Shown here piece after piece: positions 504 through 2,966 of a stretch of DNA of 64,000 bases. The notes beneath the pieces are model-generated. The model was not told where the DNA came from. It worked only from the letters and a program-made list of their open reading frames with translations, and made no database searches. Origin of the DNA: a virus; IMG/VR virus record IMGVR_UViG_3300031555_003603, positions 1 through 64,000 of that record. One strand, given 5' to 3'. Numbering within the stretch: position 1 is the stretch's first letter; each line of letters begins with the position of its first letter. The translations under genes were made by a program, and so were the position numbers.

Positions 504-2966
504 ATGTCTTACGATAATTATAATGACAATGGTGCAATGCGCCAGAAAGACTTAGTTCTTGCCCCCAATGAATTTTGTTTCTTGCAGAGCAAGACTAATG
601 GTGTCATCAAGACACATACCGGCCCAATTATGATGACCATTTCTCAGCAGGAGGCTTTGGTAGTTTTTGATACCAAAACTAAACAGTTTAAGGAAGTCTC
701 CAATTTTGACCAGGCGAAGCAGCTTTTTGTATCTGCTCCTGAAAACTGGTATATTATCCTAAAAAATCCTACTGAAAATGGTGTCTATCCAGAAGCAGGT
801 AAGGCTGTCATTGGTCCCGACCTCAAAGTTGGTGAAAAGGTAAATATTCGCGGCCCCGTTTCTTTCTCTCTGTTCCCCGGTCAGATGGCTAAGGTAATTC
901 GCGGTCATGCGCTGCGTACTAACCAGTATTTGCTGGCTCGTGTATATGAAGCAGAATCTGCCTCCAATAGCACAGGTGAGATGCTTGATGCCGAGGGTAA
1001 GAAAATTGAAACCAAGAATACCTATGTAAATGGTCAGATTCTGGTGATTAAGGGTACTGAAGTTTCTTTCTATATTCCCCCTACTGGCATTGAAGTTATC
1101 CCTGTAAATAACAATCCTCGTGAGGGTTATGTGCGTGAGGCCGTTACACTGGAGCGTCTTGAGTATTGTATTTTGAAAGACGAAGATGGTAATAAGCGTT
1201 ATGTCCACGGCCCCGAAGTGGTGTTTCCTAAGGCAACAGAAACCTTTGTTACTAGCCCTAATGATGGCTATATTTTTCGCGCTATTGAGCTTTCCCCTAT
1301 CTCCGGTATTTATGCTAAGGTAATTGCTGAATATAAGGATGAAACTGGTAAAGTTCATCCGGTTGGTGAGGAACTGTTCATTACTGGTAAAGACCAGATG
1401 ATTTATTATCCTCGTCCCGAGCATGCTATTATCTCTTATGATAATAAGATTATGCATCATGCTATTGCGATTCCCGAGGGTGAAGGCCGCTATGTAATGA
1501 ATCGCCTGACTGGCGTTATTAAGACCGTAAAGGGTCCCGCAATGTATCTACCCGACCCCCGTACCGAAGTTGTTGTAAAGCGTAAGCTTACCGCTCGTCA
1601 ATGCGAACTGTGGTTCCCCGGCAACACCGAAGCCTTGAATTATAATCAGTCTTTGAATGAAAAGGCTGTTGAAAAGTCCTTGAAGGCTTTTAATCTGGAC
1701 GACTTTGCTTTTGCTTGCTCTTATTCCGATACTGCCACTATGGCAAATCTGGAAGCTAAGGCGAACATCTCCCGCGGTACTTCTTACACTAAGCCTCGTA
1801 CTATCACTCTTGATAATAAGTATGATGGCGTTGTAAGCATGGATATTTGAACTGGATATGCGGTCAATATCGTTTCCAAGAACGGTAATCGTAAGGTTAT
1901 CTGTGGCCCTCAGACTATCTTGCTGGATTATGACCAGACTCTTGAGGTTCTTCATATGAGCACTGGTAAGCCTAAGACCACTGACCACCTCATCAGTACA
2001 GTTTATCTGCGCCACGAAAATAATAAAGTGTCTGATATTATTAAGGTCGAAACTAAGGACCATGTAAAGGCCGAAGTTAAAGTTTCTTACTGTGTTAATT
2101 TTGACCCCGAGGCCGCTGATAAGTGGTTCTGTATTGATAACTATGTCAAGTATCTTTGCGACCACGAACGCGCTCTTATTAAGAGAGCTGCTAAGAACTA
2201 TACTATTGAAGAATTCTATCAGGATTATGCCGACATCGTTCATTCTGTTGCTACTGGCGGCGAGGAGGGCGTATTGAAGTTCTCTGAGAATGGCATGTAT
2301 GTCAGTGATTGTGAAGTTTTGAGTCTTGCTGTTCAAGATGATATTGCTCGCTTGCTAACCTCTCATCAGTATGATATGGTTCAGAAGGCTCTGGACTTGA
2401 GTGATGCTGAACGTCGCGTAGAATTAGTAACCGCCCTTGCTACTGCCGAACAGGCCGAGCAAGAGCTAAAGAGCCAGCAGCTTTTGAATAAGATGGCGCT
2501 TCAGCGCACCGAGGCATTGAAGAAGCAGGAAATTCAGGCTGAAGTCAATCGTAAGAGAGAAGCTGAAGACCAGGCTGCTAAGCAGGCTGAACTGGATATG
2601 CAGGTTATTGTGAATGCTATCGCTGATGCTGATAACGCTCGTAGAAATGCGGCTCATACCGCAGAAATGGAGCGTCAGGCTGCTGAAAATGCTAAGGCTG
2701 AGGAACACGCTCGCCAGATGGCTGAAATTGAAAAGACTAAGAATGAATCTTATGCGGCTACGGTCGCTAAGATTATGGAAAGCATTGCTCCCGACCTGGT
2801 AGCTGCACTGGGCGCTCAGTCTAATGCCGATATCGTAAGTGCTCTGAGCCGTGCGGTTGGCCCTTATTCCATTGCACAGGGCGATGAATCTATTGCCGAT
2901 GTAACCAGTAAGCTTCTAAGAGGTACTGGCTTCGAAGATATCGTAAAGCACTTCGGCAATCAGTAA
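504..2966 (+). CDS. major vault protein (MVP)-like protein; single in-frame TGA at 1848-1850 splits ORF-track entries 504..1850 and 1920..2966 (same frame)
   Basis: N-terminal tandem ~50-aa repeats with V-x-GP cores (VIGPDLKVG, VHGPEVVFP, VKGPAMYLP, VICGPQTILL), then SPFH-like shoulder segment (NYVKYLCDHERALIKRAAKNYTIEEFYQDYADIV), then long E/A/Q-rich coiled coil, as in eukaryotic MVP; reading frame continuous across the TGA. Confidence 0.55.

Follow-up and report, generated by a model that had tools for sequence, protein, structure and literature searches.

An MVP-like (major vault protein-like) gene near the start of the viral record IMGVR_UViG_3300031555_003603 carries a single in-frame TGA at positions 1848-1850. 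We consider it likely that this TGA is a genuine and young opal nonsense allele and not a conserved or programmed recoding site, with any full-length product arising by ordinary readthrough by Trp-tRNA. The analysis covered 64,000 nucleotides of this record (the window); all coordinates are those of the whole window and refer to the + strand unless stated otherwise. The data themselves show the codon, the ancestral TGG behind it, that relatives lack the TGA, that more than one contig carries it, and that the sequence downstream has not decayed.

A preliminary description of the window had reported an in-frame stop at these positions, lying mid-repeat in an MVP-like gene and followed by a cleanly open frame, and these observations held. 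The TGA is codon 449 of 820 sense codons in the TAA-bounded frame 504-2966, in the context GGC GTT GTA AGC ATG GAT ATT TGA ACT GGA TAT GCG, and the peptide across the codon-449 junction would read YDGVVSMDIWTGYAVNIVSK. Past the TGA there are 371 sense codons and then TAA. Homology to full-length proteins spans the whole downstream frame, which rules out a chance open reading frame (ORF). An ORF list made with genetic code 11 cuts the gene at 504-1850, and the codon at 1848 is the sole mid-gene TGA within any genuine coding frame of the window. The mid-repeat placement is about right, as both alignment and structural model put residue 449 within the first beta-strands (445-458) of the last repeat ahead of the shoulder domain.

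The gene is MVP-like in its shoulder, its cap-helix and its overall similarity to vault MVPs, and Pfam, HMMER and Foldseek agree on this assignment. Pfam MVP_shoulder (PF11978) matched residues 506-612 (E 2e-18, 67 bits against a cutoff of 25), and Vault_3 matched residues 460-498, the sole repeat to pass and marginally so (29.1 bits against a cutoff of 28.8). With HMMER, residues 316-759 aligned with residues 332-796 of rat MVP (4HL8/4V60; E 5e-15). An AlphaFold model of the full-length protein, built on 35 homologs, predicted a beta repeat (445-503), an alpha/beta shoulder (507-610) and one long helix (612-757), with a predicted local distance difference test score (pLDDT) of 63-89 over these parts and of 81-89 in the shoulder. 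The model is confident for residues ~446-740; the N-terminal 445 residues are beta-rich with pLDDT <50. All 12 of the best Foldseek matches in the PDB were vault MVPs (human, rabbit, rat; E 9e-23 to 7e-19), with SPFH proteins next. The family is large: at E<1e-5 the search returned >6,600 database proteins, and the lengths of the 120 best lie within 812-837 amino acids. PHROGs held no family matching the protein, and at the nucleotide level neither the gene nor 50 kb of the window matched any GenBank phage; protein matches in GenBank reached only 42-44%, to megaphage records. Phage MVP homologs from the human gut were described in a 2023 preprint (10.1101/2023.11.10.566534).

Residue 449 was Trp in 120/120 of the best homologs and was invariant in a 35-sequence alignment in which identity fell as low as 45%. 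Comparison with related phage genomes, which the preliminary description had proposed, gave a clear answer at the DNA level: all five nearest relatives (L001-L005; 78-89% nucleotide and 90-98% protein identity) have TGG at this codon and no in-frame stop in the gene. There was likewise no in-frame stop in the MVP gene at any of the 16 loci of our first relative set. A wider set of 80 IMG/VR loci was chosen by conserved peptides, regardless of gene integrity; none had an in-frame TGA in the MVP gene, the frame was uninterrupted in 78 of them, and one carried a TAG at a nearly invariant Gln. A DNA-pattern search for the TGA allele returned no match in IMG/VR or in the JGI contig collection, and the one GTDB match to the pattern (L008) was rejected, as it fell by chance on the genuine end of a gene unrelated to this one. 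Because the Trp is invariant and the relatives have TGG, we read the stop as a single-step change from TGG to TGA that is limited to this lineage, with no conserved recoding signal.

A full-length query is unable to recover a truncated allele, and the N-terminal 448 amino acids were used as a separate query. One JGI protein of 448 amino acids (P0241), 100% identical to the window's, occurs on two contigs, one of them 65,102 bp long and the other shorter. A second protein of the same length and in the same cluster (P0362) differs by E216K and places the 448-amino-acid product on a third contig. The contig that encodes it, L027 (Ga0224413_10551866, JGI sample 3300032167, 1,709 bp), matches window positions 208-1916 at 1708/1709 bases and carries both the TGA and the downstream sequence as in the window; the sole difference, G1152A, lies ~700 bases from the TGA. 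Such a contig is better explained as a separate low-coverage assembly than as a variant bubble. A random base-call error is unlikely, because this second contig, with one substitution elsewhere, has the same TGA. No other genes in the window are broken, and the gene map is clean. A real allele common to near-identical strains is the simplest reading.

We then compared selection on the two sides of the stop with the Nei-Gojobori method. The ratio of non-synonymous to synonymous divergence (dN/dS) between the window and its relatives was 0.009-0.022 upstream of the TGA and 0.030-0.040 downstream; among intact relatives the downstream ratio was 0.021-0.033, and up to 0.077 in comparisons with the more distant L005. 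Private amino-acid and synonymous changes downstream of the TGA numbered 8 and 30 in the window, 7 and 38 in L002, and 7 and 28 in L003, and the window's 8 amino-acid changes all fell in the variable C-terminal helix and tail. Given ~30 private synonymous changes, neutrality over the whole terminal branch would predict ~90 non-synonymous ones. Because only 8 were seen against this expectation, the lesion would span at most a few percent of the terminal branch, or else the downstream segment would still be under selection. A decaying pseudogene was rejected: the frame is open for 371 codons, its dN/dS is 0.03-0.04, and private amino-acid changes are not above those of intact relatives.

The genetic code of the phage bears directly on how its stop codons are to be read. 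A gene map made with TAG as a sense codon has 77 genes and a coding density of 93%, and the genes end in TAA (55) or TGA (22) and no other codon. Twelve of the 22 TGA ends are ATGA stop/start overlaps. Judged by these gene ends TGA is a working terminator in the window, much as the preliminary description had stated. TAG occurs in frame 86 times, in 30/77 genes. There are TAA-bounded frames rich in TAG and without TGA, with 19 TAGs in 60583-63999(-) and 11 in 56603-58819(-). The TAG-rich genes are baseplate/tail-fibre-like, endolysin-like and endonuclease-like, for example 60583-63825(-), 56603-58801(-), 15976-17646(+) and 26012-27097(+), and there are 1-3 TAGs in each of the genes for the DnaE-like polymerase, NrdD, RecJ and PhoH.

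Two TAG sites of a 732-amino-acid baseplate-like protein correspond to Gln in 120/120 homologs, and Gln is the commonest residue at TAG sites overall. Between the window and L024 (88-92% identical), ten TAGs are common to both, one is TAG>CAG and one CAG>TAG. The Gln residues of one homolog, P0121, stem from a gene call that already took TAG as Gln; the evidence for the assignment comprises only the DNA comparison and the invariant-Gln columns. Distant IMG/VR relatives (39% identity) were too divergent to decide it, and closer homologs were used. Together the comparisons clearly point to reassignment of TAG to Gln in this phage (code 15), as described for gut phages (10.1101/2021.08.26.457843). 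A genome-wide reassignment of TGA to Trp (code 4) was rejected, with 22/77 genes ending in TGA and one in-frame TGA against ~270 TGG codons; ORF statistics under different stop sets likewise marked TGA as a frequent terminator. The window's MVP gene has no TAG and is compatible with the standard code. A relative that is 60% identical (L078, IMGVR_UViG_3300045988_147738, ~1501-3978) has an in-frame TAG in its MVP gene at the nearly invariant Gln48; to judge from this codon, the MVP gene itself uses recoded TAG in some relatives.

We searched for signals that could direct recoding at the TGA. There were no tRNA genes in the 64-kb window, neither a CUA nor a UCA suppressor, and no tRNA(UCA) in the fetched regions of relatives. 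More distant relatives (L009-L017) have 5-11 tRNA genes clustered in arrays within the 10 kb upstream of the MVP gene. In one of them, L013, a tRNA whose anticodon is CUA lies at 4219-4293, ~6 kb upstream of the MVP gene; it is an amber suppressor, to which ARAGORN gave the label Pyl. An Rfam scan of the 64 kb returned no family, the selenocysteine insertion sequence (SECIS) included. The preliminary description had suggested looking for a downstream structure that stimulates readthrough; the 100 nucleotides past the TGA fold like shuffled sequence (minimum free energy z = -0.10 and -0.07), as unremarkably as those of TGG relatives. A small hairpin ~20 nucleotides downstream of the TGA is present in the TGG relative L001 too. 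The base after the TGA at 1848 is A, and after the window's true TGA stops it is G in 8, T in 7, A in 5 and C in 2 cases, so that the fourth-base context is non-discriminating. The stop context also differs between lineages, being TGA-A in the window and TGA-T in L028, a more divergent truncated homolog.

Some observations weigh against a plain nonsense allele. The 64 kb scanned belong to a genome estimated at ~150-200 kb, elsewhere in which a phage-encoded opal suppressor tRNA is possible. L027 may come from the same study as the window or even from the same sample, and so may not be independent of it, and the TGA allele is known from assembled contigs only. There are also signs of recurrence. 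The N-terminal search returned two further truncated homologs, P0242 and P0260, that end right before a conserved Trp. P0242 lies on L028 (ENA ERZ28653800, XIEF21-1_SAMN15830152 scaffold_20812, gene 374-2866) and has 72% amino-acid identity to the window protein; its gene has a single in-frame TGA at the W541-equivalent codon (DK*FNVENYVKYLCD, the asterisk marking the stop), followed by 288 open codons to TAA, and the contig's other genes have no in-frame TGA. P0260 (JGI, 1,310-bp contig), which is 75% identical to its best full-length homolog, ends in DGVVSVDV immediately before W449, a case known at the protein level. Together these cases hint that phages may tolerate TGA at Trp codons more readily than they would an ordinary nonsense allele.

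The expected frequency of such stops can be estimated from the codons of the window's MVP gene. A true stop (TAA or TGA, TAG being sense) can be reached in one step by 7 transitions and 113 transversions. Of the transitions, 4 fall on TGG, with the ancestral W449 codon included, and 3 on CAA; Trp codons would make up perhaps 5-20% of the nonsense input, depending on transition bias. Two to three independent clean stops, all at Trp, are suggestive. The Trp-stop cases were found by inspecting truncated proteins, which is a biased route, and the remaining truncations for the most part resemble frameshifts or contig ends. An all-against-all scan for in-frame TGA across ~400 kb of related DNA was dominated before filtering by antisense and off-frame ORFs; once these were removed, nothing was left except the TGAs in the MVP genes of the window, L027 and L028. 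Because the discovery route was biased, and because the less biased IMG/VR sample had no TGA in 80 loci, we keep the recurrence as a lead and not as a result.

On the reading we favour, the TGA is a segregating allele, and a single G>A transition turned the invariant Trp449 codon TGG into TGA. Most ribosomes would terminate there via release factor 2 (RF2) and release a 448-amino-acid N-terminal fragment, the expected main translation product, which holds the repeat region and lacks the last repeat, the SPFH-like shoulder, the cap-helix and the C-terminus. The shoulder and cap-helix parts mediate assembly in eukaryotic vaults. A small fraction of ribosomes, at the percent level seen for UGA in Escherichia coli, would read the codon with near-cognate Trp-tRNA(CCA) and so place Trp there. 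Reporters in wild-type E. coli show UGA readthrough of ~2% at 37 °C to 4% at 25 °C, which reflects competition between Trp-tRNATrp and RF2 (PMC10570021). Because the ancestral residue is Trp, readthrough would give a fully wild-type full-length protein. By this analogy the TGA allele is probably leaky, and it would act as a strong hypomorph rather than a null. A hypomorph could explain both the persistence of the allele on several contigs and a bias of surviving alleles to Trp codons. Re-initiation at Met485 may be an alternative source of a C-terminal product, to which we give little weight; the GAGG in the 1944 region that would serve it stems from a synonymous GAA>GAG change, and L001, L003 and L005 read GAAG there.

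The preliminary description had offered four explanations, of which a recent nonsense mutation is the best supported. Its suggestion of programmed readthrough, perhaps as Trp, stood in part: the guess of Trp fits the invariant residue (120/120 homologs; TGG in 5/5 nearest relatives), and it was the programmed or conserved signal that was not found. A sequencing or assembly error, with TGG as the true codon, would account for a call that is one base from the ancestral codon, that rests on assembled sequence and that leaves the downstream frame perfectly intact. The same TGA in L027, which differs elsewhere by one position, the 448-amino-acid product on three JGI contigs and the lack of other broken genes in the window make such an error quite unlikely. 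Still less probable is the deliberate two-product arrangement, a design of the Q-beta A1 type in which selection keeps an abundant repeat-only protein and a rare readthrough form. A UGA-A context and a Trp-compatible position would permit readthrough at the percent level, the downstream frame is under purifying selection, and the allele is on more than one contig; however, no examined relative has the stop and nearly all encode one uninterrupted protein, neither a stimulatory structure (z = -0.10) nor a conserved context is present, L028 having no stop context in common with the window, and the purifying selection downstream is inherited from the intact ancestor. The N-terminal fragment, moreover, ends inside a domain, in the first strands of the last repeat, and not at a boundary. 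Insertion of selenocysteine has the UGA codon as its only support and is so improbable as to be negligible, with Trp and not Cys or selenocysteine in the homologs, no SECIS or other Rfam match, and the hairpin ~20 nucleotides downstream found also in L001, which has TGG.

A dedicated and efficient decoding of UGA as Trp, through an opal suppressor tRNA (UCA), an unusual tRNA-Trp or a leaky host, would make the allele an incipient TGA>Trp reassignment or a gene gated by a code switch. We think this unlikely without being negligible. It would explain why the TGA falls exactly on an invariant Trp, why L028 has its TGA at the W541-equivalent codon and P0260 ends before W449, why every verified case falls on a Trp codon although such codons would supply perhaps 5-20% of the mutations that can produce a stop, and why there is no decay downstream. 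The tRNA arrays upstream of the MVP gene in relatives, one of them with a CUA suppressor, indicate that code-switch tRNAs exist in the group, and a tRNA-Trp(CCA) with a 4-bp stem can read UGA in bacteria (PMC13092985). Yet TGA is a heavily used terminator in this phage (22/77 genes, with 12 ATGA overlaps), a lone in-frame TGA stands against ~270 TGG codons, tRNA(UCA) is absent from the window and from the fetched regions of relatives, and the MVP gene is free of in-frame TGA in all 80 IMG/VR relatives. The Trp enrichment amounts to 2-3 events that came by a biased route, and the MVP gene, with 0 TAG among its 34 Gln codons, looks like a standard-code gene expressed without a code switch. That TGA-at-Trp alleles recur and persist through useful UGA>Trp decoding by TAG>Gln phages or their hosts, either as an early second reassignment or as a switch for the full-length vault-like protein tied to the code-switch machinery, is in our view distinctly unlikely.

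Features of the interrupted MVP-like gene and its flanks, in window coordinates.
Feature	Position	Strand	Basis and remarks
MVP-like gene, ancestral frame	504-2966	+	820 codons and TAA, with TGA codon 449 as the single interruption; Pfam, HMMER, Foldseek, homologs
In-frame opal TGA at invariant Trp449	1848-1850	+	One G>A transition from TGG
ORF for the 448-amino-acid N-terminal product	504-1850	+	ORF list; database proteins P0241 and P0362
Downstream in-frame segment	1851-2966	+	371 codons and TAA; last repeat, SPFH-like shoulder and long cap-helix; intact
Promoter-like site TTGATT-17-TATAAT, 5' of the gene	439-467	+	Consensus scan, 10/12 matches
Shine-Dalgarno-like AAAGGAG	485-491	+	Window sequence; ATG at 504
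Intrinsic-terminator-like hairpin before the gene	404-439	+	Terminator scan
Intrinsic-terminator-like hairpin after the gene	2980-3003	+	Terminator scan; 10 pairs, 7 of them GC, and a T-run
Weak re-initiation candidate, GAGG and 8 nucleotides later in-frame ATG 1956-1958 (Met485)	1944-1958	+	Window sequence

The MVP-like gene looks monocistronic, because it has its own promoter-like site and terminator-like hairpins on both sides. The order of a hairpin terminator followed by TTGATT-17-TATAAT occurs twice, at 404-467 and at 2980-3033 (+), the second promoter module lying at 3005-3033, and is probably a recurrent promoter/terminator cassette of the phage. The composition of the gene is atypical: its GC content is 41-49%, against ~30-39% in the flanks, and its Gln codons are 31 CAG, 3 CAA and 0 TAG, compared with 133 CAG and 498 CAA in the whole window. 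The gene at 5980-7416 is GC-rich in a similar way. High-expression codon bias or a foreign origin could account for the composition of the MVP-like gene. An antisense ORF within it (552-2366, - strand; 604 codons, 3 TAGs) aligns with similar antisense ORFs in relatives, and we have taken it as a by-product of the codon bias of the MVP gene and not as a gene.

The slot at 3072-3850, between the MVP terminator and a Pyr_excise-like gene, is variable, with a gene encoding an HD_4 domain in L001 and L003 and no gene in L020. In the window it holds an ORF (3142-3840, + strand) for a Cys-rich protein of 232 amino acids with 4 in-frame TAGs and no Pfam match, which resembles a mobile insertion of the homing-endonuclease kind that has adapted to the TAG=Gln code. 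The TAG-rich gene at 26012-27097 (+), with 5 in-frame TAGs, encodes a protein with a hydrophobic segment at the N-terminus, a long region resembling a coiled coil and a GIY-YIG nuclease domain at the C-terminus. Elsewhere the window has genes for a DnaE-type Pol III alpha subunit (1,281 amino acids; 41924-45769), an NrdD anaerobic ribonucleotide reductase (46772-49033), a RecJ-like exonuclease (36264-38018) and a PIN-PhoH protein (14628-15929), and related contigs measure 80-240 kb. This gene set and the related contigs fit a large gut phage.

In phage Q-beta, the UGA of the coat gene is read by Trp-tRNA at a few percent, giving a short major product and the long minor coat protein A1. There the stop has been conserved and what follows it is an additional domain, whereas the stop in the window falls inside a domain of what was ancestrally one chain, and all relatives lack it. 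Ordinary leaky opal nonsense mutations, as measured in E. coli (PMC10570021), are another parallel, in that one G>A change turns TGG into TGA and Trp-tRNA readthrough restores the residue. Unlike in E. coli, the phage has already reassigned TAG; leakiness is proposed here by analogy, and the balance of RF2 and tRNA-Trp in the host may differ. Among gut phages with reassigned stops, which use code 15 (TAG>Gln) or code 4 (TGA>Trp) (10.1101/2021.08.26.457843; PMC9523058), the window goes with the former. Its lone TGA aligns with Trp as do those of code-4 phages but, unlike in theirs, TGA ends 22/77 genes. As far as it was searched, the preprint 10.1101/2021.08.26.457843 describes no phage that reassigns both TAG and TGA. 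The phage MVP homologs ctOa11 and ct2Ri15 (10.1101/2023.11.10.566534) likewise come from gut Caudoviricetes, for which a Bacillota host is suspected, and have ~810-830 amino acids with repeats, shoulder and cap-helix; that report deals with intact genes and makes no mention of interrupted alleles or of TAG recoding in the carrier phages.

As it stands, the finding is a routine point of annotation that concerns an ordinary allele. One interrupted MVP-like gene should be annotated, not two, and the window should be translated with TAG as Gln and TGA as stop. It would matter more if the recurrence holds. A preference of in-frame TGAs for Trp codons in these phages would show natural selection filtering nonsense alleles by their leakiness, and it could also mark the first step of capturing a second stop codon in an already recoded phage, against which the 'rare, dangerous stop codon' model of how codes change could be tested directly.

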